A DNA stretch of 64,000 bases, from IMG/VR virus record IMGVR_UViG_3300043418_000120, positions 32,001 through 96,000 of that record; one strand, written 5' to 3'. The stretch is from a virus. Made by a program: the position numbers and the translations under genes. This document shows, one piece after another, positions 1,410-34,319 of the stretch. Under the pieces are notes generated by a model, which was not told the origin of the DNA, searched no databases, and saw nothing but the letters and a program-made list of their open reading frames with translations. How positions within the stretch are numbered: position 1 is the first letter of the stretch; the number at the start of each line of letters is the position of its first letter.

Positions 1410-3118
1410 TTATTTTTGAATCAGTTGAGTGGGCAAACTTTTTGTCTACTGGCAACAAAGCAAACAAAGTAATTCTGAACCGCTCATCATCAACATTGAT
1501 TGTTGGTAAGAACGGCGAAGGTAAGAGCACGATCCTTGACGCCTTGTGCTTTGGTTTGTTTGGTAAACCTTTCCGCGATATTAACAAGCCACAGTTGATC
1601 AACAGTATCAATGGCAAGAACTGTTCCGTTACTGTTGAGTTCAGTGTGGCTGGTAAGTCATACAAAATCATCAGAGGTATGAAGCCAACAGTGTTTCAGA
1701 TTATCTGTAACGGCGAGGTTATCAACCAAGACGCAGCAGCTAAAGATTACCAAAAGGTTCTTGAGCAACAAATTTTAAAGCTGAACTACAAGACATTCAC
1801 GCAAGTGGTTATCTTGGGTTCAGCCTCTTTTGTTCCATTCATGCAGTTGCCTGGAGGTCAGCGTCGTGATGTTATTGAAGACATTCTTGACATCCGTGTG
1901 TTTAGTACCATGAACACATTATTGAAGCAACGCATGCAGGAGACTAAAGATGAGATTGCGTCAACTGAAGCAGCACTCGCGCTGGCGCGTGAGAGGGTTG
2001 TTGCTCAACAGAAAACCATTACTCTCTTGCAAGAAAGTCGAGCGAGTAATGTTTCAGCTGTATCGAAAAAGATTGAAGATAATGTGGTCGCTATCGAAAC
2101 CAGCTCTCAACACATTGATGTTCTCAATGAAGACATTGAGAAACTTAAACAGAGCATCGAAGACAGGAAGACTGTACTTGACGACATCGAGAAAGCCAAG
2201 AGAATTGCTCAGAGCAAGACGAGTAAGATATCTGACCTCTCCTCAACCGTGGAGTTTTTCAAAGGCAACGATGCGTGCCCACAGTGTGAGCAGGGTATCC
2301 CGCATGATCACAAGTCCAGAATTATTGACCAAATCACAGTAGAGATGGGTAAGAATGAGCAGATGGTTGAGGAGTTGTCCGCAGCAATGATCAAACTCAA
2401 TGCTCGTCTTGAACACATCAACGCTGTTCAGGAACAGATTACTGACAAGAACATTGAAGTGTCAACAGCCAACCAAACCGTTACTGTTCTGAACAAACTC
2501 AATAAGCAGCTGGCAGCTGAACTTGAAGAGATGAAGAAAGACACTGGTAATGTGGACGATGAGAAGGCTAAGTTGAAAGAGATGGCAGCTGCTGCTATCG
2601 CACACTTGGATCGTAAGACACAGTTGATTGACAAGCGTCAGTATGAAGAAGTTGCTGGATTGTTGCTGAAAGACTCAGGAATTAAAACAACAATTATCCG
2701 TGAGTATCTGCCTGTGATGAACAAGCTGATCAACAAATATCTGACAGCCATGGACTTCTATGTTCACTTTGAGCTTGACGAAACCTTTACCGAAAGTATC
2801 AAGGCTCGTCACCGCGATGAGTTTACTTACGCAAGTTTCTCTGAGGGTGAGAAGATGCGTATTGACTTGGCTATCCTGTTCACATGGCGTCAAGTAGCTA
2901 AGATGAAGAACAGCGTCAACACCAACCTGTTGATTCTTGATGAGATCTTTGACTCAAGCCTTGACGTAGCAGGAACAGATTATTTCTTGTCTCTGATGAA
3001 CGCTATGGGCGAACATACTAATGTGTTTGTTATCAGCCACAAGGGCGATCAGCTGTTTGACAAGTTCCACTCAGTAATTAAGTTCGAAAAGCATAACGAA
3101 TTTTCTGTGATTGCTTGA
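1406..3118 (+). CDS. gp46: recombination endonuclease ATPase subunit (Rad50/SbcC-like)
   Basis: Walker A GKNGEGKS, coiled coil with CPQC zinc hook, FSEGE signature, LILDE Walker B. Confidence 0.95.
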   Translation: MIIFESVEWANFLSTGNKANKVILNRSSSTLIVGKNGEGKSTILDALCFGLFGKPFRDINKPQLINSINGKNCSVTVEFSVAGKSYKIIRGMKPTVFQIICNGEVINQDAAAKDYQKVLEQQILKLNYKTFTQVVILGSASFVPFMQLPGGQRRDVIEDILDIRVFSTMNTLLKQRMQETKDEIASTEAALALARERVVAQQKTITLLQESRASNVSAVSKKIEDNVVAIETSSQHIDVLNEDIEKLKQSIEDRKTVLDDIEKAKRIAQSKTSKISDLSSTVEFFKGNDACPQCEQGIPHDHKSRIIDQITVEMGKNEQMVEELSAAMIKLNARLEHINAVQEQITDKNIEVSTANQTVTVLNKLNKQLAAELEEMKKDTGNVDDEKAKLKEMAAAAIAHLDRKTQLIDKRQYEEVAGLLLKDSGIKTTIIREYLPVMNKLINKYLTAMDFYVHFELDETFTESIKARHRDEFTYASFSEGEKMRIDLAILFTWRQVAKMKNSVNTNLLILDEIFDSSLDVAGTDYFLSLMNAMGEHTNVFVISHKGDQLFDKFHSVIKFEKHNEFSVIA

Positions 3119-3143
3119 CTTTAATTCGGTTCTAGGGTATAAT
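3115..3143 (+). promoter_or_regulatory. sigma70-like early promoter
   Basis: TTGACT-17 bp-TATAAT; the spacer resembles the cassette-repeat spacers. Confidence 0.85.
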
Positions 3144-3166
3144 CAATGCTTAAACAGGAGAAGAAG

Positions 3167-3313
3167 ATGCCCTTTAAAACCGACTCTGAATTAGCCGAAT
3201 TTTTAGATTTTTTGGCCGACCTTTCGTTAAGCGGCGAGACTTTTGAAATCTGTCTCGGTGCGCTTAAACTTCAAACGGCTCTTAAAGAAGCCTACGGCGA
3301 AAACCTAATTTAA
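3167..3313 (+). CDS. small hypothetical protein, paralogue of 15438..15584
   Basis: MPFKTDSELAEFLDFLADLSLSGETFEICLGALKLQTALKEAYGENLI; AGGAG upstream. Confidence 0.7.
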   Translation: MPFKTDSELAEFLDFLADLSLSGETFEICLGALKLQTALKEAYGENLI

Positions 3314-3319
3314 GTCAAT

Positions 3320-3391
3320 ACCCCTACGGACAGTAGGGGTTTTGGTTTACTTTAAATAGATGTTCAGGTATAATCAAGCTATGGAAAGGGG
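3320..3391 (+). repeat. palindrome-promoter cassette repeat
   Basis: CCCCTAC-GGACA-GTAGGGG, then TTTACT-17-TATAAT and an SD. Confidence 0.85.
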
Positions 3392-3398
3392 AAATGAT

Positions 3399-3845
3399 AT
3401 GAGAAAAGGCGAAATGTTAGACAAGGCTCTGTTACTTGCTACCAACTCTCACCATGGGCAGTTCGACAAGGGTGGCGCTCCCTACATTCTCCACCCAATC
3501 AAGGTTATGCACTACATCAAGTCTGACGATGAAGAACTGATGTGTATGGCTCTCCTACATGATGTTGTAGAGGACTGTGACGTTACCTTTGTGGACTTGG
3601 AAGCCATCGGCATGAGCAAGCGTGTTATTGATGCTGTTCGCTGCTTGACTAAGCAACGTGGCCAAACCCTTGCTGAGTACAAGGAGGTCATCTTCTCGAG
3701 CCGTGACGCGATGCGTGTCAAGATGGCTGACTTACGACACAACAGCGATATCCGTCGTCTGAAGGGCGTGACTGAGAAGGATCTGGTTCGTATGGAAAAG
3801 TACCATAGGTTCTATCTTGAGATCCAAGCAAAACTGGCTGAGTGA
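3399..3845 (+). CDS. HD-domain hydrolase, SpoT/Mesh1-like
   Basis: HHGQFDKGGAPYILHP, ALLHDVVED and KMADLRHN motifs typical of the RelA/SpoT hydrolase domain. Confidence 0.85.
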   Translation: MRKGEMLDKALLLATNSHHGQFDKGGAPYILHPIKVMHYIKSDDEELMCMALLHDVVEDCDVTFVDLEAIGMSKRVIDAVRCLTKQRGQTLAEYKEVIFSSRDAMRVKMADLRHNSDIRRLKGVTEKDLVRMEKYHRFYLEIQAKLAE

Positions 3846-9418: not shown

Positions 9419-9742
9419 ATGGCTAATGTCTATCGTCTAAAAGAATGTCCGCATTGTGGTGCTGAGCATCGCAAGCGTGGACCCTACTGTTCTCGTAGTT
9501 GTGGCAACCACCGCACATATACTGAATCGCAGAAGGAAGACAAACGTGTTGCAATGCGCAAGTTTATGAACAGTGAGAATGAAGTTGCTGAGAAGCAACG
9601 CTGGCTGATCACACAACAACGCAGAGCTGACGGACGGACAGAGGCTGAGCTCTACGCAGAGATGGAAGAGTATGGTGTGATACCACCAACGGATATAGGC
9701 TTCAGCTACGAGAAGGACGCTGACGGCGATATCTGGTTCTAA
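9419..9742 (+). CDS. Zn-finger hypothetical protein
   Basis: CPHC...YCSRSC. Confidence 0.65.
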   Translation: MANVYRLKECPHCGAEHRKRGPYCSRSCGNHRTYTESQKEDKRVAMRKFMNSENEVAEKQRWLITQQRRADGRTEAELYAEMEEYGVIPPTDIGFSYEKDADGDIWF

Positions 9743-9763
9743 AACCAAAGACTTACATTTCGA

Positions 9764-9851
9764 TAACCCTACCATGTGTAGGGTTTTTCACATTGGTGCT
9801 TGCCTTTAATTCCGAACAGAGGTATAATCAATCTATTGAAAGACGAAAAGG
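9764..9851 (+). repeat. palindrome-promoter cassette repeat
   Basis: CCCTAC-CATGT-GTAGGG; TTGCCT-17-TATAAT; CAATCTATTGAAA..AGGA. Confidence 0.85.
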
Positions 9852-9858
9852 ATACGAT

Positions 9859-10275
9859 ATGATGAAGGCTGGCGTTTACTACATTGGTGACCTGTGCTAC
9901 GTGATGCATGATTGCTGGGATGAGTTCTGTGACCTTACTATCAAAGGCAATGAGTGCCTGAGTGGTGAGTTTACTATGAAGGATGGTCGCCGTTTCGCTA
10001 CCTACTCTACCAAGTATGGTGATGGTTTGTACCCAACAAACGTAGGCGCTAACCTTTCCGTTGATGCTGGTCTGATTGGTTGTATCCTTGTCAGCGACAT
10101 CCGTGACCCTGAAGCTACCGAAGCAGCAATGAAGTCTCTCGGCACTATCGTCGAGTTCGGTACTGACTTTGTTACTGGTGGTTCGCGCGAGACAGGTACA
10201 ATACAGTTTGGTCGTGTTGTTGTTGAGACAGGCGATTTTTATGATGATGAGGAAGATGAGTATGACTGCGAATAA
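9859..10275 (+). CDS. conserved phage hypothetical protein
   Basis: YYIGDLCY...TKYGDG...VDAGLIG; SD supplied by the repeat. Confidence 0.75.
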   Translation: MMKAGVYYIGDLCYVMHDCWDEFCDLTIKGNECLSGEFTMKDGRRFATYSTKYGDGLYPTNVGANLSVDAGLIGCILVSDIRDPEATEAAMKSLGTIVEFGTDFVTGGSRETGTIQFGRVVVETGDFYDDEEDEYDCE

Positions 10276-10582
10276 TGCGTTGATGGTTGAACAACTTGGT
10301 CTGTTGGCTGAGAAGGGCGTGATGGTTCAAATGCGCAGCCGATTTGAGTATGAGGTGTTTGGTTTCTACAAGAGCAACAGCGTTGTTGTGAACCTGCCTA
10401 TGCAAACAGTAACAGCACGCTACGGTGAAGTTGATGAGTTTGCTGCTGAAGGTTTGTTTGATGCTTTGGTTGAACTCAACTACAGCTGGTGGTCGCGCAG
10501 CCATGCACGCTACGATGGTTGGTCCCGCCCATCCCCTGAGTGGGAAAAGTTGTTCGAAGCTGCTGGTCTCGAGGTCGATTGA
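10262..10582 (+). CDS. hypothetical protein
   Basis: ORF overlapping the upstream stop; start refined. Confidence 0.65.
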   Translation: MTANNALMVEQLGLLAEKGVMVQMRSRFEYEVFGFYKSNSVVVNLPMQTVTARYGEVDEFAAEGLFDALVELNYSWWSRSHARYDGWSRPSPEWEKLFEAAGLEVD

Positions 10583-10607
10583 CTTTAATTAGCAGCTCAG
10601 GTATAAT
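10579..10607 (+). promoter_or_regulatory. sigma70-like promoter
   Basis: TTGACT-17-TATAAT. Confidence 0.8.
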
Positions 10608-10630
10608 TGTTGATCATTGAAAGGATTGTT

Positions 10631-10942
10631 ATGTCTAATTTTATTACTTTTTCCACAAATACCACAGCTGTTCCTGTAGAGGCTGGTGGAATTTTGAATG
10701 GGTATAAGCTCAACTCTATTCTACACAGTGGTCGCAAAATTTCTCTAGCGCAGAACGCCTATTACTACATCCCATACACAAACACAATTGTGTCTTTCCG
10801 CGGATCAAAGGCCAAAGCGATGGTTCGTAGCGATGACGGCAAGTACAGTTTCATCGAGAAATTTACTGACCGCAAAGGGCACTGGACTTTTAAGGTTGAT
10901 TCAGCCATGGTTCACGAGGCTGCGCTGACCATGTTCCGATAA
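10631..10942 (+). CDS. hypothetical protein (cassette)
   Basis: AAGGA SD; the stop TAA is the first three bases of the next repeat. Confidence 0.7.
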   Translation: MSNFITFSTNTTAVPVEAGGILNGYKLNSILHSGRKISLAQNAYYYIPYTNTIVSFRGSKAKAMVRSDDGKYSFIEKFTDRKGHWTFKVDSAMVHEAALTMFR

Positions 10943-11013
10943 CCCTACAGCTCGTAGGGGCTTTACTTTAATTCGGATTCGAGGTATAATCAATCTATTG
11001 TGAGAAAAGAAAG
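10940..11013 (+). repeat. palindrome-promoter cassette repeat
   Basis: TAACCCTAC-AGCTC-GTAGGGGC TTTACT-17-TATAAT CAATCTATTG..AAAGG. Confidence 0.95.
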
Positions 11014-11022
11014 GTTTTGATT

Positions 11023-11229
11023 ATGGGTTTCGAGTCTGTTGTGTTGGCTAAGGTTCGTGAAGTGTTGGTTGCTGTTCCTAGCTACCAAGCAAATTTTGTG
11101 AACGGTACGCTGTTCGTTGAGTGCTCTGTCCGTGACGCTATCCGTCTCGAGACAGCTCTGCTTGAGAAATTGCGCTGCGGCATCATCCTGAGTCGCGTTG
11201 GTGATGAGTCTGCGTTTGACTTTGTTTAA
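11023..11229 (+). CDS. hypothetical protein (cassette)
   Basis: Follows the repeat SD. Confidence 0.7.
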   Translation: MGFESVVLAKVREVLVAVPSYQANFVNGTLFVECSVRDAIRLETALLEKLRCGIILSRVGDESAFDFV

Positions 11230-11238
11230 GGGGCTGGT

Positions 11239-11385
11239 ATGAGAGTTTCGTTTCGTAATGTCCGTATCAATGAACTGTTCAGCTGCAATGGTAACCTATA
11301 CTACAAAAAGTCAAGCCGTACAGCTGTGCTGATGTCAGCCAACCGTACATTCTATATGTCACAACATGACAACTGTCTGATCTGA
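11239..11385 (+). CDS. small hypothetical protein
   Basis: MRVSFRNVRINELFSCNGNLYYKKSSRTA...; AGGGG SD. Confidence 0.6.
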   Translation: MRVSFRNVRINELFSCNGNLYYKKSSRTAVLMSANRTFYMSQHDNCLI

Positions 11386-11392
11386 GGTGCTT

Positions 11393-11656
11393 ATGACAAT
11401 CAAAATGTATAAGAGTGAGTATGTGAGTAAAGAAGAAACCGCTCGCCAATGTGTTGTCGCTGAACAAGTGGCCATCGAGTTTCAGGAAGAGTTTGCTGCT
11501 ATGTGTGAGAAGTATAAGGTAGAATTCTCTGTTCGTGAAAAGACTAGCGGATATAGCACCTACGTGGAAGGCATTGATGTCGACTTTGATGGCATTTATG
11601 AAGATGGCACAACCGTTCGTCCATACTTTACCATTCAGTTTGGTAGCACAATCTAA
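11393..11656 (+). CDS. hypothetical protein
   Basis: GAGGT SD; ORF track. Confidence 0.65.
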   Translation: MTIKMYKSEYVSKEETARQCVVAEQVAIEFQEEFAAMCEKYKVEFSVREKTSGYSTYVEGIDVDFDGIYEDGTTVRPYFTIQFGSTI

Positions 11657-11665
11657 GGAATCAAA

Positions 11666-11848
11666 ATGAACATCCAAACTGTAGCAGAAAATCTGCGTAA
11701 CACAATCGCGGGCAAGAAGGCGATGTTGGCTGGCATCAAAGACAACGGCAAAGAAGGATATTATATACTGTCGCATATGCTGAGTATGAACATTGAAGAG
11801 TTGGAGAAAATTCTGGCTGATGTTGACCAATGTTTGGTGGAGCAGTGA
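11666..11848 (+). CDS. hypothetical protein
   Basis: AAGGA SD; ORF track. Confidence 0.65.
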   Translation: MNIQTVAENLRNTIAGKKAMLAGIKDNGKEGYYILSHMLSMNIEELEKILADVDQCLVEQ

Positions 11849-12186
11849 TGACCCTGACTGACTTGGTCTCTCGTCAAGGCAACAAGTGCTACTACTGCAG
11901 TTGCGAAATGAATCAGACTAAGAAGTCACCGAATCAAGCTACGGTTGAGCACTTGGTTGACAAGTGGTCTAGCCCAAAGCATCGTAAGATTGAATGCACT
12001 TCTAACCTAGTCGCTGCTTGCTTTCAGTGTAACAATAGTCGTGGTGCGGCTCGTAATAGAATTGCTCGCGACTACTACAAAACGCAAGCTGCCAAGAAGA
12101 GTATGAAACTGGCGGTGGCGTCTATCTCGAGTCGTCAATTGTATTCGTTGTTTGGTCCAGTACCACAAACCCTATTCGTCATGTAA
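11848..12186 (+). CDS. HNH endonuclease family protein
   Basis: CYYC...ATVEHL...NLVAACFQCNNSRG. Confidence 0.8.
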   Translation: MTLTDLVSRQGNKCYYCSCEMNQTKKSPNQATVEHLVDKWSSPKHRKIECTSNLVAACFQCNNSRGAARNRIARDYYKTQAAKKSMKLAVASISSRQLYSLFGPVPQTLFVM

Positions 12187-12195
12187 GGAATTGAA

Positions 12196-13221
12196 ATGCG
12201 TAAACTTGCTAAGATTGTTAAGATCGACAACCTGACACCCATCGATGGTGCTGATAAAATTGAAGTTGCCACTGTTGGTGGTTGGAAAGTTGTAGCCCAG
12301 AAGGGTCTATACAACGTTGGCGACTTGGCTGTGTATTTTGAGATTGACTCATGGATTCCAACCGAGTTGGCACCATTCTTGTCTAAGGGCAAAGAGCCTC
12401 GTGAGTTTGAAGGTGTCAAGGGCGAACGCCTAAAGACTATCAAGCTGCGTGGGCAGTTGTCACAAGGTTTGTTGATGCCACTGTCTGAAGTAATTTCTAT
12501 TGCTGGTTGCTGGTCACCAATCCAAGAGGGCGATGATGTTACAGAGTACTTGAACATCAAGAAGTGGGAAAAGCCAATGAATGCTCAGTTGGCAGGTGTG
12601 TGTCGTGGTAATTTTCCATCACTGATTCCAAAGACTGATCAAGAGCGTGTTCAAAACTTGAAGAAGGAAATTGGTGCTGCTCAGAACGATGTGTTTGAAG
12701 TCACTGAAAAGTGCGAAGGTTCTTCAATGACTGTGTACCAAATGGTTGTTGAAGGTGAGATGACATTCGGTGTGTGTTCACGTAACATGGACTTGAAGGA
12801 AACTGAAGGTAACTCTTTCTGGGCTACTGCGCGCAAGGATGACATTGAAGCAAAGATGCGTGCTGTTGATGAGTTCTGGTCATTCGCAATTCAAGGTGAG
12901 TTGATTGGTCCAGGCATTCAAGGTAACATCTATGGATTGAAAGAACCAAAGTTTGTTGTGTTTGATGTGTACGACATTCAAGCAGGTGAATACTTGCCAC
13001 CAGATGCTCGTCGTGAGTTGATTGCTGGTATGGGGTTGAACCATGTGCCAGTGTTGAACGAACGCTATGTGTTGACTCAAACCGTTGATGAGATCATCGC
13101 TTCTGCTGAAGGTCAATCGACCATTGCCAAGGTAGAGCGCGAAGGTATTGTGTTCAAGCAAGCCATGGGTGGATTCTCATTCAAAGCGATCAGCAACGCC
13201 TATCTTTTGGGCGAAAAGTAA
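12196..13221 (+). CDS. RNA ligase, DRB0094/Rnl5 family
   Basis: N-terminal OB domain (PIDGADKIE, KLRGQLSQGL), TEKCEGSS (KxxG), QGEL, REGIVFK, FKAIS. Confidence 0.9.
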   Translation: MRKLAKIVKIDNLTPIDGADKIEVATVGGWKVVAQKGLYNVGDLAVYFEIDSWIPTELAPFLSKGKEPREFEGVKGERLKTIKLRGQLSQGLLMPLSEVISIAGCWSPIQEGDDVTEYLNIKKWEKPMNAQLAGVCRGNFPSLIPKTDQERVQNLKKEIGAAQNDVFEVTEKCEGSSMTVYQMVVEGEMTFGVCSRNMDLKETEGNSFWATARKDDIEAKMRAVDEFWSFAIQGELIGPGIQGNIYGLKEPKFVVFDVYDIQAGEYLPPDARRELIAGMGLNHVPVLNERYVLTQTVDEIIASAEGQSTIAKVEREGIVFKQAMGGFSFKAISNAYLLGEK

Positions 13222-13294
13222 CCCTACCATCAGTAGGGTTACTGGTTTACTTTAATTCAGAACTCAGGTATAATCAATCTATTGAAACAAAGGA
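13219..13294 (+). repeat. palindrome-promoter cassette repeat
   Basis: TAACCCTAC-CATCA-GTAGGGTTA; TTTACT-17-TATAAT; SD. Confidence 0.95.
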
Positions 13295-13300
13295 ATGATC

Positions 13301-13666
13301 ATGAACGACAACTACAGTATCCCCTCCTATACATTTGCTCGCTCTGGCGCTATCACCCGCGAGTTTCTGGCCAACTTACCTTTCCGTCTCTTCAAGGACA
13401 GCGACTATCTGGCATTCGCAGGCGTCGAGAGCCCAGTACCTTTGATCGCTGAGGTCGAAGGCGACTTTGAAAGTTTCATCGTGATTGTTGACGGTGATAC
13501 TGCTGAGATGTACGTTGCCAATGAAGATGGTGCATTTGATATTGTGGATGCTGTTGGGTTCATCTCAGAGTTACAGTATGGCCCAACCAAGGATGAGTTG
13601 ATTCGTGAAGCGCGCATCAAAATCAATGAGTTGCAAGCAACCCTGCGTAAACTGGAAGCCCAATGA
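13301..13666 (+). CDS. hypothetical protein (cassette)
   Basis: Follows the repeat SD. Confidence 0.7.
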   Translation: MNDNYSIPSYTFARSGAITREFLANLPFRLFKDSDYLAFAGVESPVPLIAEVEGDFESFIVIVDGDTAEMYVANEDGAFDIVDAVGFISELQYGPTKDELIREARIKINELQATLRKLEAQ

Positions 13667-14004
13667 TCTACGCATCCTTCAAGAAGCGCAAGCCACGTAA
13701 ACCCAACGCGGAACAGCGTGCTCTAGCAAAGTCATGGTCTGACATGGTAGCGCAGTACGAGCCCAAGAAACCTATTGCCCCATCCAAGGACACAGGATTC
13801 GTGTACAAGCTCAATGCGCCTGTTGGTCGCGAGACGCCTAAGATCCCATCACGCGCAACGGCTGGTGGTAATGGTTCATGGCGTCCCAACCCTGTCTACA
13901 CAGGCGACAAGATCAAGGGCATCGGCACAATGCACAAGAGCAACGCAGTGCCAGTGTTCAGCGACGAGGAAGCCCAAGACATTGCTAAGATGCGCCGAGG
14001 ATAA
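13663..14004 (+). CDS. conserved basic T4-like hypothetical protein
   Basis: YTGDKIKGIGTMHKSNAVPVFS motif; ends at a repeat. Confidence 0.75.
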   Translation: MIYASFKKRKPRKPNAEQRALAKSWSDMVAQYEPKKPIAPSKDTGFVYKLNAPVGRETPKIPSRATAGGNGSWRPNPVYTGDKIKGIGTMHKSNAVPVFSDEEAQDIAKMRRG

Positions 14005-14075
14005 CCCTACTGTTCGTAGGGGCTTTACTTTAATTCGGATTCGCGGTATAATCAATCCATTGAAACAGAAAAGGA
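14002..14075 (+). repeat. palindrome-promoter cassette repeat
   Basis: TAACCCTAC-TGTTC-GTAGGGGC TTTACT-17-TATAAT. Confidence 0.95.
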
Positions 14076-14082
14076 AAACAAA

Positions 14083-14277
14083 ATGACTAAGCTCCCTCGC
14101 AACGTGGTGTCTGTAACTGTGGTTGATGGCGTAACCTTTACCGTGTACAAGTCTCGCAAGACTCCAAAGTCTACATGGCGCTCTGGCAAAGTCAGCCGTA
14201 CTGGTTCAACAGGTACATCTGGTTTTGCTATTGGTTTCCCAAGCCGCTCTACCATCGGTGGTGGTGTTCAGGAATGA
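14083..14277 (+). CDS. hypothetical protein (cassette)
   Basis: Follows the repeat SD. Confidence 0.65.
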   Translation: MTKLPRNVVSVTVVDGVTFTVYKSRKTPKSTWRSGKVSRTGSTGTSGFAIGFPSRSTIGGGVQE

Positions 14278-14453
14278 CTGTGGGTACAGACAACCAAACC
14301 TATGAGCAAGGCGTTGCCGATGCTCAGCTTGACCTGATGGGTGGTTGGGTTGATGAACACACAACAGCACAGGAAGTCATAGACCAACTGACAATTGCTG
14401 TTGGTGCCAGCCAAGAGTACATTCAGGGCTACTTGACTGTGGTTGGCGTATAA
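14274..14453 (+). CDS. small acidic hypothetical protein
   Basis: MTVGTDNQTYEQG...; ATGA overlap; the stop lies in the repeat. Confidence 0.65.
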   Translation: MTVGTDNQTYEQGVADAQLDLMGGWVDEHTTAQEVIDQLTIAVGASQEYIQGYLTVVGV

Positions 14454-14521
14454 CCCTACTACTCGTAGGGGCTTTACTTTAATTCGGTTCTAGAGTATAA
14501 TCAATCTATTGAAACAAAGGA
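14451..14521 (+). repeat. palindrome-promoter cassette repeat
   Basis: TAACCCTAC-TACTC-GTAGGGGC...; identical to the copy at 17308. Confidence 0.95.
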
Positions 14522-14527
14522 ATGATT

Positions 14528-14722
14528 ATGACAGTCATCAAGGCAACTTCTTACGGTGAGATTGGTATTGACCCTGAAGCAAGTCCAGGCAACGGACAGT
14601 TCTACGCCATGACTTATGATGGCGAACTCAATGCCTGTGGTTACGAAACCGCAGAGGAAGCGTGGGCTGAACTTGAGTATGTCGCCTGTGGTATTGAAGA
14701 CGCTGTGTTGGAGGAAGTATGA
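14528..14722 (+). CDS. small acidic hypothetical protein (cassette)
   Basis: Follows the repeat SD. Confidence 0.65.
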   Translation: MTVIKATSYGEIGIDPEASPGNGQFYAMTYDGELNACGYETAEEAWAELEYVACGIEDAVLEEV

Positions 14723-15003
14723 GTTTGCCAAAGTTAAAAGTCAAGCTGATGTTGCGCGATCCCAGCTGGACGCCTATCTTTGAGGATGGCAACCCATGGG
14801 CTGTGAACAAAGACAGCTACCTGATTGAGCAAGAACGCGAAGTTGAGGTTGTTCAGCTTAACCTTAACACTGGTGGCATGCGCATCCGCTGGAATGAGCC
14901 TGACGCCACCAAGAAGAAAGGCTACGTGGTTGAGAGCTGTGACATATCCATCGACCACTTCTACAAGCACTACCACATCATCCAGATGCCAGAACGCACA
15001 TAA
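14719..15003 (+). CDS. hypothetical protein
   Basis: GGAGG SD; the stop lies in the repeat. Confidence 0.7.
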   Translation: MSLPKLKVKLMLRDPSWTPIFEDGNPWAVNKDSYLIEQEREVEVVQLNLNTGGMRIRWNEPDATKKKGYVVESCDISIDHFYKHYHIIQMPERT

Positions 15004-15073
15004 CCCTACTGTTCGTAGGGGCTTTACTTTAATTCGGTTCTAGAGTATAATCAATCTATTGAAAGACGAAAGG
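15001..15073 (+). repeat. palindrome-promoter cassette repeat
   Basis: TAACCCTAC-TGTTC-GTAGGGGC TTTACT-17-TATAAT. Confidence 0.95.
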
Positions 15074-15078
15074 TTGAT

Positions 15079-15363
15079 ATGTCCCGCTCTTATAACCCAC
15101 TTGATTACATCCCCCACTTGATCGTCGGCTGCATCATCGCTATGCCTCTGTTCCTGTTTGTGTGTGCTATTGATCAAGGCTTTGGCTCCGATAAGGTTTT
15201 GGACACGTACTCAGGTCAGAAGTCAGTTTGTACTCGCTACCAGTTCAATAGCAGCTTGAAGGTTACCCAGTGTGTTGAGCGTGTGATGGTTGCTGCTACC
15301 TGTAAGAAGATTGAGCACACAGGTCCCGTGTTTGGTGTGTTCACCAATGAGCGTTGCGAATAA
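15079..15363 (+). CDS. membrane-anchored Cys-containing hypothetical protein (cassette)
   Basis: N-terminal TM helix; flanked by repeats. Confidence 0.7.
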   Translation: MSRSYNPLDYIPHLIVGCIIAMPLFLFVCAIDQGFGSDKVLDTYSGQKSVCTRYQFNSSLKVTQCVERVMVAATCKKIEHTGPVFGVFTNERCE

Positions 15364-15431
15364 CCCTACAACCTGTAGGGGCTTTACTTTAATTCGGAAC
15401 TCAGGTATAATCAATCTATTGAAACAAAGGG
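15361..15431 (+). repeat. palindrome-promoter cassette repeat
   Basis: TAACCCTAC-AACCT-GTAGGGGC TTTACT-17-TATAAT. Confidence 0.95.
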
Positions 15432-15437
15432 CTGATT

Positions 15438-15584
15438 ATGAAAAACTACGTGTTTGTGACTGATTCTGAACTCGCTGAATTCTTGAAAAAATTGGGTGAC
15501 CTGTCGCTTGAGGCTGATACCTTTGAAGTGGCGTTGGCTGCTTTGCGTCTTCAAACTTTGTTGAAAACCGCTTACGGTGTGTGA
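15438..15584 (+). CDS. small hypothetical protein, paralogue of 3167..3313
   Basis: MKNYVFVTDSELAEFLKKLGDLSLEADTFEVALAALRLQTLLKTAYGV. Confidence 0.75.
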   Translation: MKNYVFVTDSELAEFLKKLGDLSLEADTFEVALAALRLQTLLKTAYGV

Positions 15585-15590
15585 GTGAAT

Positions 15591-15667
15591 AAACCCTACT
15601 ACCCGTAGGGTTATCGCTTTACAATAATTCGGATTGGTAGTATAATCAATCTATTGAAACAAAAGGC
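15591..15667 (+). repeat. palindrome-promoter cassette repeat
   Basis: AACCCTAC-TACCC-GTAGGGTT; TTTACA-17-TATAAT. Confidence 0.9.
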
Positions 15668-15672
15668 TGACT

Positions 15673-16062
15673 ATGTACTCGTTCTCTCCACTCGCTTCTA
15701 TCCCTGCTTGCCATGATGGTTTCGGCATCATCGTTGCTCTGTGTATCTTCATCACAGTTATCGTTCTGATGAACGAAGCCGAGCTGTTCTTTCAGTGGTT
15801 CTTTGTGGCTACTGTGACATGTGTACTTGCTTACTTTGTGTCCTACAGCTGGACTGACCAGACGCCCAAAACCTTTGTGAATGAGAAGGTGACAGCTACC
15901 TTTGTCAGCTTTGAGGCTGAGGGCTACAAAGAGAAGTCAGGCAAGAGCTACGTAGACAAGCACTTCACCTATGTTGTGTACAATGTCAACGGCTCCAACG
16001 TCCTGTTGTCTGCTACTCCTGGCCAAACCTATCCACAATCTGTCATCCTGTACAAGAACTAA
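15673..16062 (+). CDS. membrane protein, two TM helices (cassette)
   Basis: Two hydrophobic segments; flanked by repeats. Confidence 0.75.
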   Translation: MYSFSPLASIPACHDGFGIIVALCIFITVIVLMNEAELFFQWFFVATVTCVLAYFVSYSWTDQTPKTFVNEKVTATFVSFEAEGYKEKSGKSYVDKHFTYVVYNVNGSNVLLSATPGQTYPQSVILYKN

Positions 16063-16137
16063 TAACCCTACAGGCTGTAGGGGCTTTACTTTAATTCGGA
16101 ACTCAGGTATAATCAATCCATTGAAACAGAAAAGGAA
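16063..16137 (+). repeat. palindrome-promoter cassette repeat
   Basis: TAACCCTAC-AGGCT-GTAGGGGC TTTACT-17-TATAAT. Confidence 0.95.
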
Positions 16138-16143
16138 ATCGAA

Positions 16144-16332
16144 ATGAAACCTACAACATGGGAAGTTTGTTTTGACTATGGCCCACATATGAGTGATACA
16201 GTAAAGGTCAAGGCCAGTTCAGAAGACGAAGCCATTGCCAAAGTAGAGAAGGCGGCAGAGAAAAAAGGTCGCAGTATTGATATCAACTGGGCGAAATCAG
16301 CAGAGCAAGGTGTGGCGGAGGAATACGCATGA
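16144..16332 (+). CDS. hypothetical protein (cassette)
   Basis: Follows the repeat SD; ends AEQGVAEEYA. Confidence 0.7.
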   Translation: MKPTTWEVCFDYGPHMSDTVKVKASSEDEAIAKVEKAAEKKGRSIDINWAKSAEQGVAEEYA

Positions 16333-16565
16333 TTGAGTACAAAACCGCTGAGGAAGCAATCGCAGCCAACATCAAGGCGATGGGTGATGACGGTTTCATT
16401 GAGTTTAATGGAATGAACTGCAACGACTACCTTGATGACGATGAGATGTTCTGCGATGGCTGGGATGGTGTTGATCGCCGCTGTGACTGTGGCAACCGCA
16501 GAGTCAGCTGGACAACTGAGCAGGACAGCAAGGGCAATTGGTCAGCTTACGCGGAGGCATACTGA
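16329..16565 (+). CDS. small Cys-rich hypothetical protein
   Basis: CDGWDGVDRRCDCGNRRV. Confidence 0.7.
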   Translation: MIEYKTAEEAIAANIKAMGDDGFIEFNGMNCNDYLDDDEMFCDGWDGVDRRCDCGNRRVSWTTEQDSKGNWSAYAEAY

Positions 16566-16804
16566 TGGTGGGTCTAAAAGAATGGTTTGAAGCCAAAGCC
16601 TATAAGCCCAAGTATGAGTTTGGTGCTCGTGTGATTGGCAAGTACCGTAAGATGCCCTTTGTTGGTTGTGTGGGCACAGATGGCATCCGTTCAGAGGAGG
16701 AAGGACCAATCCTAACTGTTACGCTGGACCTGCCTCTGATGGTAGATGGCATACCTCGAACTGTGTTAATTGTCAAGCACAAAGATGTAAAACCCTACAA
16801 GTAG
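16565..16804 (+). CDS. hypothetical protein (SH3-like)
   Basis: TGATG coupling; the C-terminal KPYK is encoded by the palindrome. Confidence 0.65.
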   Translation: MVGLKEWFEAKAYKPKYEFGARVIGKYRKMPFVGCVGTDGIRSEEEGPILTVTLDLPLMVDGIPRTVLIVKHKDVKPYK

Positions 16805-16864
16805 TAGGGGAATGGTTTACAATAATTCGGATTGGAGGTATAATCAATCTATTGAAACGAAGGA
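16791..16864 (+). repeat. palindrome-promoter cassette repeat
   Basis: CCCTAC-AAGTA-GTAGGG; TTTACA-17-TATAAT. Confidence 0.9.
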
Positions 16865-16870
16865 ATGACA

Positions 16871-17032
16871 ATGGAATACATTATACTTACTGACAGCCGT
16901 TCTGACGCCCTTGCTGGTGATGTGACTTGGCACCTGTCCCAAGGCTGGGAATTGGTTGGTGGTGTAAGCCTTTCCGTTGCTCCAGGTGGCTGGACTTCAT
17001 ACGCTCAGGCTATGAAGAAGGACTCAAAATGA
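16871..17032 (+). CDS. DUF1737-like small protein
   Basis: YIIL...V..HLSQGWELVGGVS...YAQAM pattern. Confidence 0.65.
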   Translation: MEYIILTDSRSDALAGDVTWHLSQGWELVGGVSLSVAPGGWTSYAQAMKKDSK

Positions 17033-17310
17033 CTGTTACAATCGCTCTGAACACGCTCCCTCCAGGCATGGAATTTGACTGGGAAGGCAACCCTCGCTAC
17101 AAGAAAAGTTGGTATCAGGTGTTTGAGTGTACCGATGCTACTGACCACTGGAGCTATGACGCCTCCAAGCTGTTGTTTGAGTCAGACTGCCTAGCCAAGT
17201 CGCACAGCTTTGCCTATGACACATGGCTCAAGGACGAGGCTAAAATCTTCACAATCATCCAAGCCTGTGATGAGTCATGCCGTGGTGGCTATGGCTTTGA
17301 TGAGTATTAA
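17029..17310 (+). CDS. hypothetical protein
   Basis: AAGGA SD; the stop lies in the repeat. Confidence 0.65.
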   Translation: MTVTIALNTLPPGMEFDWEGNPRYKKSWYQVFECTDATDHWSYDASKLLFESDCLAKSHSFAYDTWLKDEAKIFTIIQACDESCRGGYGFDEY

Positions 17311-17378
17311 CCCTACTACTCGTAGGGGCTTTACTTTAATTCGGTTCTAGAGTATAATCAATCTATTGAAACAAAGGA
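17308..17378 (+). repeat. palindrome-promoter cassette repeat
   Basis: Identical to 14451..14521. Confidence 0.95.
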
Positions 17379-17384
17379 ACCGAA

Positions 17385-17477
17385 ATGACTGATTATGAAA
17401 AGCCCCTTCTTGAAGACATGACTGATACCGTTGTGCTCTATGTGTTGTGTGCTATCTTGATCATGGTGGTGATGTAA
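17385..17477 (+). CDS. 30-aa membrane peptide
   Basis: MTDYEKPLLEDMTDTVVLYVLCAILIMVVM; SD from the repeat; TAATG coupling. Confidence 0.5.
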   Translation: MTDYEKPLLEDMTDTVVLYVLCAILIMVVM

Positions 17478-17779
17478 TGTTCAGTTTCTTCAAATCCAAA
17501 CCTACCAAGCCAGCGATCCCAGAGATTATGCGTCGCTACCGCTACACATGCTCATGCGGCGAGCACACTGACCTTGAGTGGTGCCCTGCCTGTGGTATCC
17601 GTAACACATACAAGTGGAACGGCAGCAAGGGCTATCCAACCCGCGCAAAGGCGTCGCCAGCGATCACTACCTCGTCCTCGGACAGCTACGTGGACATGAG
17701 CTCGTCCTTCAGCAGCTACAGCAGCTCGGACAGCTCATGCTCTAGTGACGGTGGCAGCTGCTCGGGTGGTGGCGAATAA
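17477..17779 (+). CDS. Zn-ribbon protein with Ser-rich tail
   Basis: CSCG...CPACG; the stop lies in the repeat. Confidence 0.65.
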   Translation: MFSFFKSKPTKPAIPEIMRRYRYTCSCGEHTDLEWCPACGIRNTYKWNGSKGYPTRAKASPAITTSSSDSYVDMSSSFSSYSSSDSSCSSDGGSCSGGGE

Positions 17780-17851
17780 CCCTACAGCTCGTAGGGGCTT
17801 TACTTTAATTCGGATTGGTAGTATAATCAATCTATTGTGAGAAAAGAAAGG
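17777..17851 (+). repeat. palindrome-promoter cassette repeat
   Basis: TAACCCTAC-AGCTC-GTAGGGGC TTTACT-17-TATAAT. Confidence 0.95.
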
Positions 17852-17858
17852 TTTTGAT

Positions 17859-18008
17859 ATGATTCGCGTTGTTACTGGTTTCCTGATTGTGTTTGGTGCT
17901 GTGGGTGGTCTTGATAATGCTACTGACTCTAACCTGTTGCCCTTGGTAGCTATCGCGGTTGCTGGCTTGGCCATCATGGCAGCTGGTCTGAGCAAGGTGA
18001 CCAAATGA
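17859..18008 (+). CDS. small two-TM membrane protein
   Basis: MIRVVTGFLIVFGAVGGLD...LVAIAVAGLAIMAAG. Confidence 0.65.
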   Translation: MIRVVTGFLIVFGAVGGLDNATDSNLLPLVAIAVAGLAIMAAGLSKVTK

Positions 18009-18148
18009 GCTACATCCTGATCACTCCAACGGGCAAGACCTATACCTTCTACCTGAAGGCTGTCGCACAAACGTATCTGCAAGCCTATGGTGGTACACTG
18101 ATTACCCCTACCACTGGTAAGGTCATTTCCGAAACTGCTTGCGCATAA
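18005..18148 (+). CDS. small hypothetical protein
   Basis: MSYILITPTGKTYTFYLKAVAQTYLQAYGG...; reads through a degenerate repeat. Confidence 0.55.
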   Translation: MSYILITPTGKTYTFYLKAVAQTYLQAYGGTLITPTTGKVISETACA

Positions 18149-18168
18149 TTCGGATCTAGAGTATAATC
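18102..18168 (+). repeat. degenerate palindrome-promoter repeat
   Basis: CCCCTAC-CACTG-GTAAGG; TTGCGC-17-TATAAT. Confidence 0.75.
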
Positions 18169-18174
18169 AATCCT

Positions 18175-18378
18175 ATGATGAACGAAATTAGAATTGAACG
18201 TGCCTTCGGGATGGATAAGCTGGGTCGCGATGTACCTGTGGGCTTTGACATCTATGTGGATGGCAACTGGGGCAACCGTTTCCGCACCCTGCGTGAGTGC
18301 AAGGTAGCGCTCGCTGCTGATGGCATCCAGTATAACCCTACCATGCGTAAGGTTATTTCCGAAAGTGCTTTACGTTAA
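18175..18378 (+). CDS. hypothetical protein (possibly leaderless)
   Basis: The ATG lies about 7 nt after TATAAT; the C-terminus reads through the next repeat. Confidence 0.6.
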   Translation: MMNEIRIERAFGMDKLGRDVPVGFDIYVDGNWGNRFRTLRECKVALAADGIQYNPTMRKVISESALR

Positions 18379-18397
18379 TTCGGTTTCGACGTATAAT
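18333..18397 (+). repeat. palindrome-promoter repeat
   Basis: TAACCCTAC-CATGC-GTAAGGTTA; TTTACG-17-TATAAT. Confidence 0.8.
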
Positions 18398-18427
18398 TAC
18401 TCTATTGATTTGAAAGAAAGACTGAAA

Positions 18428-19351
18428 ATGACTAATACCGTGAAGACCTCTGTTTCGTTTGATAAAGTTTCTGGCAAGTACACTGTTCAGATTGGTGATC
18501 AAAAGCCTTTCAAGACTGCCAAGAAGAGCCATATTGAATGGAAATTCAAGCAGGTCACAGGTATGGACATGGACTATGACTCTATCGTGGCTGGTGAGGT
18601 TGAGGCTAAGCAAGCCAAGGACAATAAGTTCGGTATCAACGCTCGCTTCGCCTTTGTTGAGCAGCTGGTCTCAATGGTTGCTGACGGTGTTCAGCCTAGT
18701 GCCGTGATCACTGGTGAGGGTGGTCTGGGTAAGACTCACACTGTTACTAAGACGCTGGCTGCTAAGGGCTACACCGATATCTCCGATTTGAGTGAGTTCG
18801 CAGTTGGCTCAACTCTGGCTCGTAAGTCATTCAAGACAATCAAGGGCTTCTCAACCGCAAAGGGCTTGTACCGCACTCTGTTTGAGAACAATAAGTCAGT
18901 TATCGTGTTTGACGACTGCGACGCTGTGCTCAAGGATCCAGTTGCTCTCAATGTGTTGAAGTCAGCCCTGGACAGCTACGGCAAGCGCATTATCAGCTGG
19001 AACGCTGAGTCGGGTGATGACCTGCCTCGTAGCTTCAACTTTGAGGGTCGTGTGATTTTCATCTCCAACATGGACCAATCTAAAATCGACCAAGCAATTC
19101 GTAGCCGCTCGATGATGATTGACCTGAGCATGACTACCGAGCAGAAGATTGACCGTATGGAAACAATTGCTGCTAGCCCTGACTTCATGCCTGAGTATTC
19201 AGCTGAGATCAAGCAAGATGCATTGAACCTGATCCGTGAACTCAAGGACGACGCCAAGGAAATCAGCCTGCGTACGCTTATCGCAATCAGCAAGGTGCGC
19301 GCAGCTAACAAAGAATGGAAAGCTCTGGCAGAATACATGCTGGTAGCCTAA
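18428..19351 (+). CDS. AAA+ ATPase (phage family)
   Basis: Walker A GEGGLGKT, Walker B VIVFDDCD, FISN sensor, AIRSR arginine finger. Confidence 0.85.
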   Translation: MTNTVKTSVSFDKVSGKYTVQIGDQKPFKTAKKSHIEWKFKQVTGMDMDYDSIVAGEVEAKQAKDNKFGINARFAFVEQLVSMVADGVQPSAVITGEGGLGKTHTVTKTLAAKGYTDISDLSEFAVGSTLARKSFKTIKGFSTAKGLYRTLFENNKSVIVFDDCDAVLKDPVALNVLKSALDSYGKRIISWNAESGDDLPRSFNFEGRVIFISNMDQSKIDQAIRSRSMMIDLSMTTEQKIDRMETIAASPDFMPEYSAEIKQDALNLIRELKDDAKEISLRTLIAISKVRAANKEWKALAEYMLVA

Positions 19352-29781: not shown

Positions 29782-29867
29782 TAACCCTACAGATTGTAAG
29801 GGTTTGCAAGCCCCTACAGGCGGTAATCCTGTAGGGGCTTTACATTTAATCAAGATTCAGGTATAAT
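29782..29867 (+). repeat. double palindrome plus promoter
   Basis: CCCTAC-AGATT-GTAAGG, then CCCCTACAGG-..-CCTGTAGGGG; TTTACA-17-TATAAT. Confidence 0.85.
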
Positions 29868-29897
29868 TACTCTATTGATTTGATAAGAAGACTGATA

Positions 29898-34222: not shown

Positions 34223-34286
34223 TAACCCTACTGCCAGTAGGGTTATTCCGAAAAGTATTGACATTTATTGGGTTTTAACGTATAAT
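34223..34286 (+). repeat. palindrome-promoter repeat
   Basis: TAACCCTAC-TGCCA-GTAGGGTTA; TTGACA-17-TATAAT. Confidence 0.9.
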
Positions 34287-34319
34287 TACTCTATTGTGAT
34301 TGAAAACCAAGGATATATT

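Follow-up and report, generated by a model that had tools for sequence, protein, structure and literature searches.

Promoter-early stem-loop (PeSL) elements have been described in T4-type phages, for RB49/phi1 (Arbiol et al. 2010, PMC2839356) and for PST/T4 and nt-1/KVP40 (Comeau et al. 2014, PMC4122927). In RB49/phi1, promoter and terminator activity has been measured and the elements form mini-circles (PMC2839356), while the PST/T4 elements carry the promoter consensus TTTACW-N17-TAYWAT (PMC4122927). The cyanomyovirus S-PM2 is reported to be without dense PeSLs (PMC4503421). T4 early promoters have a common consensus that extends past the -35 and -10 hexamers (PMC2988021).

A dense array of similar elements occurs in the complete, 173,880-bp (~174 kb) genome of an uncultured T4-like phage, recorded as a metagenome assembly. 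The window is a stretch of this genome 64,000 nucleotides in length. T4-like core genes include a gp43-type polymerase, an SbcC/gp46-like (gp46/47-like) protein, a DnaB-type helicase and a UvsX-like RecA; the polymerase is closest to those of cyanomyoviruses, with 55% identity to that of Synechococcus phage S-T4. No relative above 79% protein identity, and no strain-level relative, was found for this genome.

A sequence-only reading of the window had listed 14 repeated headers between small genes and likened them to PeSLs. All 14 were recovered at the listed starts, and the sequences support identifying the array as the PeSL architecture already described, feature by feature: hairpin, sigma70-like promoter, Shine-Dalgarno (SD) and start, copy number, ORFan cargo and T4-like genome. 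At a probability of roughly 80%, the headers are PeSL-type elements in a hyperplastic region, and homologous exchange between them shuffles the cassettes.

Header anatomy

Headers R1-R14 are near-identical and separate ~28 small genes, mostly without a family match. Each occupies the entire intergenic gap, with a stop codon, a 6-bp hairpin, a sigma70-type promoter, a conserved leader and an SD, and homology between copies stretches from the upstream gene's stop codon as far as the downstream ATG. The array sits inside a 26.7-kb variable block (window 3118 to 29880) that has a PeSL at either boundary. The headers and related elements are as follows.

3115..3380, + strand: variable block, left edge; PeSL (stem 3322-3338, -10 at 3369) preceded by a stemless promoter (3115-3143) and the paralog of cargo gene 7 (3146-3313)
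9764..9858, + strand: PeSL R1; 8-bp hairpin, 16-nt linker, -35 TTGCCT, -10 TATAAT, leader plus SD
10579..10607, + strand: stemless promoter of the header family, TTGACT-17-TATAAT; predicted to drive gene 10631-10942
10940..11022, + strand: PeSL R2; short linker, 96% identity to R12 across 83 nt
13219..13300, + strand: PeSL R3; 11-bp hairpin (-16.8 kcal/mol), 7-nt linker
14002..14082, + strand: PeSL R4; loop in common with R6, tail in common with R9
14451..14527, + strand: PeSL R5; 72-nt exact tract in common with R11
15001..15078, + strand: PeSL R6; block chimera with R4 loop, R5/R11 spacer and R1 tail
15361..15437, + strand: PeSL R7
15591..15672, + strand: PeSL R8; 8-bp hairpin, 7-nt linker, -35 TTTACA, spacer identical to R12
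16063..16143, + strand: PeSL R9; R7/R3 spacer, R4 tail
16790..16870, + strand: PeSL R10; 6-nt linker, -35 TTTACA
17308..17384, + strand: PeSL R11
17777..17858, + strand: PeSL R12; R2 stem-loop and tail, R8 spacer
18103..18174, + strand: PeSL R13; degenerate, with broken stem and long linker within coding sequence, -35 TTGCGC
18333..18427, + strand: PeSL R14; long-linker type, orthologous to the PeSL preceding the AAA gene in relatives
29782..29897, + strand: right edge of the variable block; two-hairpin PeSL preceding a peptidase gene
34223..34319, + strand: outlying long-linker PeSL

The window contains 17 instances of the palindrome CCCTAC-N5-GTAGGG (one mismatch or fewer), where 0.02 would be expected, and 17 of the -10 plus leader motif, where 0.54 would be. 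The genome holds 20 palindrome copies; the 17 of the window lie between 3.3 and 34.3 kb, 14 of them in 8.6 kb. The genome also has elements beyond those listed by the sequence-only reading. At 3115-3143 and 10579-10607 lie promoters of the header family that have no stem, both with the TGA of the upstream gene inside the -35 hexamer; full copies number three more in the window (at 3322, at 29785 with a double stem, and at 34226) and three elsewhere in the genome.

Perfect stems of 6-11 bp are present in R1-R12 (12/14 copies), at 2, 6, 7 or 16 nt from the -35, while those of R13 and R14 are broken (GTAAGG). The promoter consists of a -35 TTTACT/A (TTGCCT in R1), a 17-nt spacer and a -10 TATAAT, and scores 10-11 of 12 sigma70 consensus matches in 13 of the 14 copies; R13 has a weak -35. 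It matches the published PST/T4 consensus. Further likenesses to T4 early promoters (PMC2988021) are the near-consensus hexamers, the 17-nt spacer and conservation at additional sites beyond the hexamers; unlike them, the headers have neither a TGn motif nor an UP element. As proposed earlier, the tail supplies the SD of the next gene (13/14 copies). In R13, the -10 and tail are of the array type, there is no SD, and the ATG lies 7 nt past the -10, making the mRNA of cargo unit 13 a candidate leaderless transcript. R14 is the ancestral long-linker header type.

The leading TAA had been read as the stop codon of the previous gene in most copies. This is exact in eight of 14 (R2-R7, R11 and R12), and the other six differ. 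R9 has a tandem second stop, the upstream stop lies 24 nt (R1) or 9 nt (R8) before the stem, and the gene upstream of R10 ends at a TAG within the hairpin loop. At R13 and R14 the stem has decayed, and the upstream reading frames continue across it as far as the TAA in the promoter spacer.

As in intrinsic terminators, a U-rich stretch comes after the hairpin, but it coincides with the -35 region of the promoter itself, and the hairpin is shorter and weaker than is typical. Eleven copies pass a simple terminator scan, though the stems are 6 bp and the U-tract is interrupted. The common hairpin is 6 bp long with a folding energy of about -9.5 kcal/mol, only 1-2 sd below shuffles (z -1 to -2), so strong termination is doubtful.

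The order of stem-loop, sigma70-like promoter, and SD with start is that of PeSLs, as are the extent from upstream stop to downstream ATG, the many conserved copies with a genome-specific stem consensus, the clustering among small ORFans of hyperplastic regions in a T4-like genome, and the want of a known dedicated recombinase. Several features differ. The stem is CCCTAC/GTAGGG rather than the published G-run/C-run, A3-4G3/C3T3-4 or AGNA/TCNT; in the main subfamily the hairpin lies right against the -35, which leaves no AT-rich UP region; eight copies have a stop codon fused to the stem; and the phage belongs to an uncultured lineage with a polymerase nearest to cyanomyoviruses.

Cargo genes

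Each header precedes one to six translationally coupled genes, and a promoter-like site is present at every cargo unit. The units, and the conserved gene that follows them, are as follows.

9859..10582, + strand: unit 1; genes of 138 and 106 aa that overlap, the former phrog_20074 (unknown function)
11023..13221, + strand: unit 2; six genes, an HNH endonuclease and an RNA ligase among them
13301..14004, + strand: unit 3; gene pair, 4-nt overlap; second gene phrog_27048 (unknown function)
14083..14453, + strand: unit 4; gene pair, 4-nt overlap
14528..15003, + strand: unit 5; gene pair, 4-nt overlap
15079..15363, + strand: unit 6; single 94-aa protein with a hydrophobic segment
15438..15584, + strand: unit 7; 48-aa protein with a 65%-identity paralog at window 3146-3313
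15673..16062, + strand: unit 8; 129-aa protein with a hydrophobic segment
16144..16804, + strand: unit 9; three coupled genes, the last ending at the TAG in the R10 hairpin loop
16871..17310, + strand: unit 10; gene pair, the first DUF1737
17385..17779, + strand: unit 11; 30-aa hydrophobic peptide and 100-aa Cys/Ser-rich protein
17859..18148, + strand: unit 12; two genes common to the relative G001, the second reading through the decayed R13 stem
18175..18378, + strand: unit 13; one 67-aa gene, not between the same neighbours in G001
18428..19351, + strand: AAA-type ATPase gene (phrog_1250); conserved, a synteny anchor and not cargo

The cargo described by the sequence-only reading was borne out. 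The RNA ligase (gene 12196-13221) matches PF09414 and PF21189; the HNH endonuclease (gene 11848-12186) has a PHROGs match at E 5e-9, though it falls under the Pfam cut-off; four proteins contain a hydrophobic segment; and neither Pfam nor PHROGs gave a family match for 22 of the 28 genes lying between R1 and R14. The paralog of gene 15438 (at 3146) lies 12 kb away behind a like promoter. Apart from this pair the cargo genes are mutually unrelated, which rules out an array formed by gene duplication.

Mosaicism among headers

Exact tracts shared between headers have a median length of 24 nt and a maximum of 72 nt. The longest, of 52-72 nt, occur among R5, R6 and R11, and the order of the cassettes they flank could have been influenced by short-read assembly. 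That the array or its cassette order is altogether a short-read assembler chimera, collapsed or mis-joined at repeats in a metagenome record, is barely credible: most exact tracts span 12-34 nt, below usual read and final k-mer lengths, ORFs are intact at every junction with proper stops and SDs, and the same architecture is seen on independent contigs of relatives.

Four headers (R6, R9, R12 and R13) are chimeras built of blocks found in other copies, and multi-base blocks (5-nt loops, 7-nt spacers and 10-20-nt tails) are identical across copies in discordant combinations, with junctions at several positions along the header. Between 62 and 135 pairs of informative sites are incompatible. The PHI test for recombination gives p <= 0.003 with the indel-prone tail columns and p 0.07-0.38 without them.

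The CAATC-type leader was found in no IMG/VR contig besides this genome. Together with the copy number (20 palindromes versus 4-9 in five relatives), it points to probable amplification or homogenisation in this lineage. R14 is more like its orthologs in other genomes than like neighbouring copies; this likeness and the genome-specific leader amount to concerted evolution.

The headers might instead be regulatory repeats only, alike through common selection on strong early promoters, terminators and leaders, with gene turnover by illegitimate recombination or homing endonucleases and with headers near breakpoints merely since every intergenic gap holds one. The extended likeness among T4 early promoters (PMC2988021) and the lack of robustness of the PHI test are in keeping with this, and with one header per 617 bp on average (14 copies in 8.6 kb) any breakpoint would fall near one. 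The discordant combinations of identical blocks argue against it, and concerted evolution is not predicted by selection alone; the comparison with relatives also bears on the question.

Comparison with relatives

The evidence for exchange is drawn from two sources, neither of them strains of this genome: relatives with 64-79% protein identity and a pair of related contigs that are 99.6% identical. The sequence-only reading had proposed recombinational shuffling of cassettes, and in a test set beforehand relatives showed different gene order with breakpoints at the repeats. A dozen relatives have homologs of the cargo, rearranged in order and lying both before and after the AAA gene; more distant relatives have few cargo genes in common with this phage. 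In the 168-kb relative G001, the homolog of gene 9419 precedes a single PeSL, beyond which lie homologs of genes 17859 and 18005. G001 thus lacks both R1-R12 (8 kb) and the R13 cassette. The two genes flanking the variable block (window 3118 to 29880) are separated by 303 bp in G001, which lacks the whole block at this site.

The related contigs L056 and L057 have flanks that are 99.6% identical. L056 carries a 504-bp two-ORF cassette flanked by two PeSLs, and L057, without the cassette, has a single PeSL that is an exact hybrid of the 5' half of PeSL-A and the 3' half of PeSL-B. Indels bounded by elements that leave hybrid copies are likewise known for PeSLs between close relatives. Between the same contigs one ORF is also replaced by another with no PeSL involved, the breakpoints being the start codon and the next SD, as turnover independent of the headers would produce. 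The hybrid header, however, is a signature of crossover within the repeat, and an account by regulatory repeats only is unlikely.

A hairpin plus promoter is found at the orthologous site in relatives down to 50% protein identity, and the stem sequences of distant clades differ, which supports a putative structural role for the hairpin. The arms are invariant in this genome, apart from R13 and R14, and nearly so in near relatives, where variants mostly break pairs and seldom compensate; RNA structure therefore has no covariation support at short range.

Such invariance would also suit a dedicated sequence-specific system, in which a phage protein (the array HNH or a recombination helper) binds or cuts the 6-N5-6 palindrome and targets exchange to headers; the array would then be a genuine cassette platform and not a product of passive homology. 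The arms CCCTAC/GTAGGG are unchanged in 12/14 copies and dominant in relatives (24/53 elements), where compensatory changes are not systematic; 11 bp separate the centres of the half-sites; an HNH gene sits within the array; and Arbiol et al. suggested, as speculation, that a protein might target the conserved PeSL stem (PMC2839356). However, the only mapped crossover (L056/L057) is in the promoter spacer and -10 tract, outside the palindrome, and block junctions in the window copies are scattered along the unit. The palindrome-to--35 distance is variable, orthologous-site hairpins of distant relatives have quite different arms, and the R13 and R14 promoters are kept though their palindromes decay inside coding sequence. 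No homolog of the array HNH gene was found in relatives having the palindrome. A search for tyrosine and serine recombinases (PF00589 and PF00239) over the whole genome gave no match, with matches in 14/14 (PF00589) and 12/14 (PF00239) control genomes, extending the earlier observation of no integrase in the window to integrases and resolvases in the entire genome. Targeting by a dedicated protein is thus very improbable.

The array had also been called integron-like, which holds as an analogy of outcome only. Small, unrelated, mostly unknown genes lie between imperfect-palindrome repeats, and cassettes are gained, lost and reordered. Unlike in integrons, there is no IntI-type tyrosine recombinase, each unit has its own promoter-like site instead of one common Pc promoter, the repeats are conserved in sequence and contain the promoter and SD, and the mapped crossover falls in the promoter portion, which fits homologous exchange.

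Proposed mechanism

On the favoured reading of PeSL-type elements exchanging by homology, the hairpin and U-rich stretch would form a probable weak intrinsic terminator or a 3'-end protector for the upstream transcript. The promoter would be a host sigma70-type promoter of the T4-early kind and presumably fires early, and the leader and SD may serve the next one to six coupled genes. Each cargo unit would thereby be transcriptionally insulated.

Crossover between headers is possible because they have exact tracts in common, and it would be carried out by the phage homologous recombination machinery (UvsX-like and gp46/47-like), perhaps through circular intermediates. The presence of these genes and the absence of an integrase fit homologous rather than site-specific exchange. 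Such crossovers would delete, insert, duplicate or reorder whole expression-ready cassettes with the genes left intact, and the cargo may have a role in host takeover or anti-defence.

Genome context

The source is a T4-like phage known from metagenome alone. Its window encodes a gp43-type DNA polymerase 55% identical to that of Synechococcus phage S-T4, together with an SbcC/gp46-like nuclease subunit, a DnaB-type helicase and a UvsX-like RecA. Megablast against 50,697 phage records returned no DNA nearly identical to the array. The sequence-only reading saw no integrase in the window, and this extends to the whole genome, in which no tyrosine or serine recombinase was found while the positive controls matched.

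Header anatomy and copy number

The array consists of 14 copies (R1-R14) of a 72-95-nt header unit. Reading of window 9600-18600 and a repeat finder both reproduce the number and the starts first proposed (9764, 10940, 13219, 14002, 14451, 15001, 15361, 15591, 16063, 16791, 17308, 17777, 18102 and 18333). The window has 17 occurrences each of the palindrome CCCTAC-N5-GTAGGG, with at most one mismatch, and of the -10 plus leader motif, the chance expectations being 0.02 and 0.54, respectively. The whole 173,880-bp record, of which the window covers bases 32001-96000, contains 20 palindromes, every one a few bases upstream of a plus-strand promoter-like site. Members of the family in the window that the first reading overlooked are as follows.

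Additional members of the header family in the window
3115-3143: family promoter, stemless
10579-10607: family promoter, stemless
3322 (start): full header copy
29785 (start): full header copy
34226 (start): full header copy

An anchored listing gives the order within a header as stop codon, 6-bp stem with a free 5-nt loop, linker, -35, spacer, TATAAT, leader, Shine-Dalgarno and ATG, and copy-to-copy homology runs from the stop codon through to the ATG. The linker is 2 nt long in eight copies, 6-7 nt in three and 16 nt in three. The -35 hexamer is TTTACT or TTTACA, and the promoter spacer measures 17 nt, its first nine bases (TTAATTCGG) conserved and the next seven varying blockwise. Array leaders start with CAATC(T/C)ATTG, followed by a purine-rich Shine-Dalgarno and the ATG.

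The proposal that the leading TAA is in most copies the stop codon of the previous gene holds, with the stop adjoining the stem in 8 of 14 copies. The stop lies within the hairpin loop in R10; in R13 and R14 the stem and linker have decayed, and the upstream genes continue through them to stop at the TAA of the promoter spacer, so that two unrelated proteins have similar repeat-encoded ends. These are 15-residue tails (…TPTTGKVISETACA and …NPTMRKVISESALR) on small proteins, encoded at 18103-18148 and 18333-18378. The homolog of the first tail-bearing protein in G001, a complete 168-kb relative, likewise reads through a decayed header and stops at the spacer TAA.

Several family members depart from this plan. 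At both stemless promoters, the TGA of the upstream gene (3116-3118, 10580-10582) is the TGA within the -35 sequence TTGACT, so that the gene end overlaps the next promoter. The header before a peptidase gene (29785-29838) has two tandem hairpins, one decayed and one perfect (CCCCTACAGG/CCTGTAGGGG); this tandem, at the right edge of a 26.7-kb variable block, may have been left by the joining of two headers. Three headers (window 18162-18177 and 3369-3383, and base ~131,870 of the genome, outside the window) place the ATG just 6-7 nt past TATAAT, with no Shine-Dalgarno; the genes behind the two in the window are 18175-18378 and 3381-3845. These short-leader headers are candidate sources of leaderless mRNAs, whereas the rest of the family has leaders of 20-33 nt.

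Cargo genes

The R1-R14 interval carries 28 genes on the plus strand, grouped into 14 units that each hold one to six. Neighbouring genes of a unit either overlap, by 1, 4 or 14 nt, or are separated by gaps of 7-9 nt, a spacing that suggests translational coupling. The cargo had been described as an RNA ligase, an HNH protein, membrane peptides and many unknowns, and database searches agree. The RNA ligase matches PF09414 and PF21189, the HNH endonuclease is found with PHROGs (E 5e-9) and falls under Pfam's cut-off, and four products have a hydrophobic segment. Family matches among the 28 genes are otherwise few: DUF1737, two PHROGs of unknown function and a weak, sub-threshold match to DUF5854. 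No Rfam match (E up to 1) and no tRNA was found in the array region. The GC content of the array is just 1-2 sd above the genome mean and therefore says little about foreign origin.

An origin of the array by tandem gene duplication was rejected because the cargo proteins are mutually unrelated. An exception is the 48-amino-acid product of 15438-15584, which has a 65%-identical paralog at 3146-3313 with a family promoter in front and a hairpin after it.

The HNH endonuclease gene (11848-12186) is free-standing and lies directly 5' of the RNA ligase gene. In relatives, no counterpart of the HNH gene was found next to the RNA ligase genes, which is the pattern expected of a homing endonuclease insertion.

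Gene gain, loss and reordering in relatives

The promoter core is present in 33 IMG/VR stretches. The AAA gene, a conserved AAA-type ATPase gene directly 3' of the array (18428-19351), has 564 relatives in IMG/VR, the closest at 79% identity, and protein-anchored scans found nothing closer than 79% in IMG/VR or 75% in metagenome contigs. The short-linker header core was not found in JGI metagenome contigs. Comparisons for the array thus comprise relatives at no more than 79% protein identity, with no strain-level relatives found, plus one closely matched pair of contigs, L056 and L057.

Contigs L056 and L057 have flanks of 99.6% identity. In L056, headers A and B enclose a 504-bp segment containing two ORFs; L057 lacks this segment and has a single header, whose 5' part (hairpin, linker and -35) is that of header A and whose 3' part (spacer, -10 and leader) is that of header B. 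Such a hybrid header is the signature expected of a crossover within the repeat. The same pattern was described for RB49/phi1 by Arbiol et al. (PMC2839356). The two contigs also differ by an ORF-for-ORF replacement with no headers at its breakpoints, so headers do not account for every difference. Here unrelated genes of 159 and 129 amino acids occupy the same place (L056:7456-7935 and L057:8112-8501), the breakpoints coinciding exactly with the start codon and with the Shine-Dalgarno of the following gene.

With genes named by their start coordinate in the window, G001 shares with the array region only the RNA ligase, 9419, 17859, 18005 and the AAA gene. In G001 a single header separates the 9419 homolog from those of 17859 and 18005, and a further header separates these from the AAA gene; the R1-R12 stretch (8 kb) and the single-gene R13-R14 cassette are thus absent at that place. 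A genome-wide comparison shows the two genomes to be collinear on either side of window 3118-29880. The distance from the gp46-like gene to the peptidase gene is 303 bp in G001, with a hairpin-promoter and a tiny ORF between, versus 26.7 kb in the window, where headers at 3322 and 29785 form the limits of the block. The few G001 homologs of its genes are dispersed among four other places. The block also holds a nicotinamide phosphoribosyltransferase gene, in addition to the array and the AAA-type gene.

A dozen other relatives have cargo homologs in varied orders and on either side of the AAA gene. In L011, for example, homologs of 11023 and 17859 are adjacent, with a header before each. In L024, a homolog of 3360-3845 is joined directly to a homolog of 26.1-28.6 kb; there is no clean header at the join, and this junction was set aside as evidence of header exchange. 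Gene order in relatives is therefore not identical, and breakpoints do fall at repeats. The hybrid header of L057, the absences in G001 and the permuted cargo of the dozen relatives support the earlier proposal of recombinational gene capture and shuffling at the repeats.

Mosaicism and probable amplification or homogenisation of copies

Identical multi-base blocks are common to the copies in discordant combinations. R6 combines the R4 loop, the R5/R11 spacer and the R1 tail; R9 combines the R7/R3 spacer with the R4 tail; R12 equals R2 except for its spacer, which is identical to that of R8; and in R13 the stem and linker are of ancestral type but the -10 and tail are those of the array. Roughly half the informative-site pairs conflict with a single tree. 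For the 11 best copies, p in a PHI-type permutation test was <= 0.003 when the indel-prone tail columns were kept and 0.07-0.38 when they were left out; the test is therefore not robust, and block sharing is relied on instead. Exact tracts shared between copies have a median of 24 nt and a maximum of 72 nt, and the order of cassettes flanked by the longest of them depends on the metagenome assembly.

Three copies, R14 and those starting at 29785 and 34226, look like headers from other genomes in having a long linker and a leader that starts TACTCTATTG. R1-R13 have the CAATC-type leader, whose exact motif was not found in any other IMG/VR contig. The genome has 20 palindromes versus 4-9 in five relatives. 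This confined leader, the raised palindrome count and the ancestral headers of R14 type together indicate that one header type has been amplified or homogenised in this lineage.

RNA structure or protein site

The common 6-bp hairpin has a predicted energy of about -9.5 kcal/mol, and longer forms reach -15 to -17. Eleven copies pass a simple terminator scan, the U-rich -35 region serving as the tail. We take the hairpin to be a putative weak terminator, or a protector of 3' ends, that has been homogenised within genomes.

That PeSL stems might be protein targets was raised by Arbiol et al. (PMC2839356). Applied here, this would mean that a protein of the phage recognises CCCTAC-N5-GTAGGG and nicks or pairs the DNA there. 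The array would then be a targeted, recombinase-independent gene-capture platform, expanded in this lineage, whose standard stop-hairpin-promoter-leader plug would be conserved throughout a wide clade of uncultured T4-like phages. The arms are invariant in this genome, and among 53 distinct elements of relatives the variants at inner stem pairs mostly break pairing, only one being doubly compensated; a protein site or plain common descent would account for both. However, a fixed operator fits poorly with a palindrome-to-promoter distance of 2 to 16 nt, and the mapped L056/L057 crossover lies outside the palindrome. At the orthologous site before the AAA gene, moreover, relatives down to 50% protein identity keep a promoter, many with a hairpin of entirely different arms. 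We consider such a targeted platform very improbable; the stem itself may still be a protein target.

In distant relatives (L097-L135), a conserved TATTGATTGATTAGGAG leader follows the -10, about 20-45 nt upstream of the AAA-gene start. In it, each of the three frames meets a stop codon immediately ahead of a GGAG Shine-Dalgarno, which gives it the appearance of a translational insulator; a weaker form is retained in R14.

Comparison with known systems and significance

The suggested resemblance to PeSL cassettes of T4-type phages extends to every sequence-level feature compared: composite order, span, multiplicity, ORFan cargo, hyperplastic-region location, a T4-like genome and hybrid copies at indels. 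The promoter consensus of the PST/T4 PeSL pair equals that of the array (PMC4122927), and the headers share with T4 early promoters the known trait of extra conserved positions outside the hexamers (PMC2988021). The array differs from an integron in its lack of an integrase and in cassettes that carry promoter-like sites of their own. It reveals no new kind of system, the PeSL architecture being already known.

Earlier demonstrations of the PeSL mechanism concern T4-type coliphages and T4-type phages of Yersinia and Vibrio, with elements of RB49 assayed in a transcriptional fusion vector (PMC2839356). Dense PeSLs are reportedly missing from the cyanomyovirus S-PM2 (PMC4503421). A clade whose core genes are nearest to those of cyanomyoviruses adds lineage, not mechanism, to PeSLs, and the present analysis extends their modular shuffling to this large clade of uncultured T4-like phages. 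A clean natural example of header exchange is the hybrid header of the 99.6%-identical contig pair. Screens for host takeover or counter-defence could also draw candidates from the array's roughly 28 genes, which are putatively expression-ready and early and almost all of unknown function.
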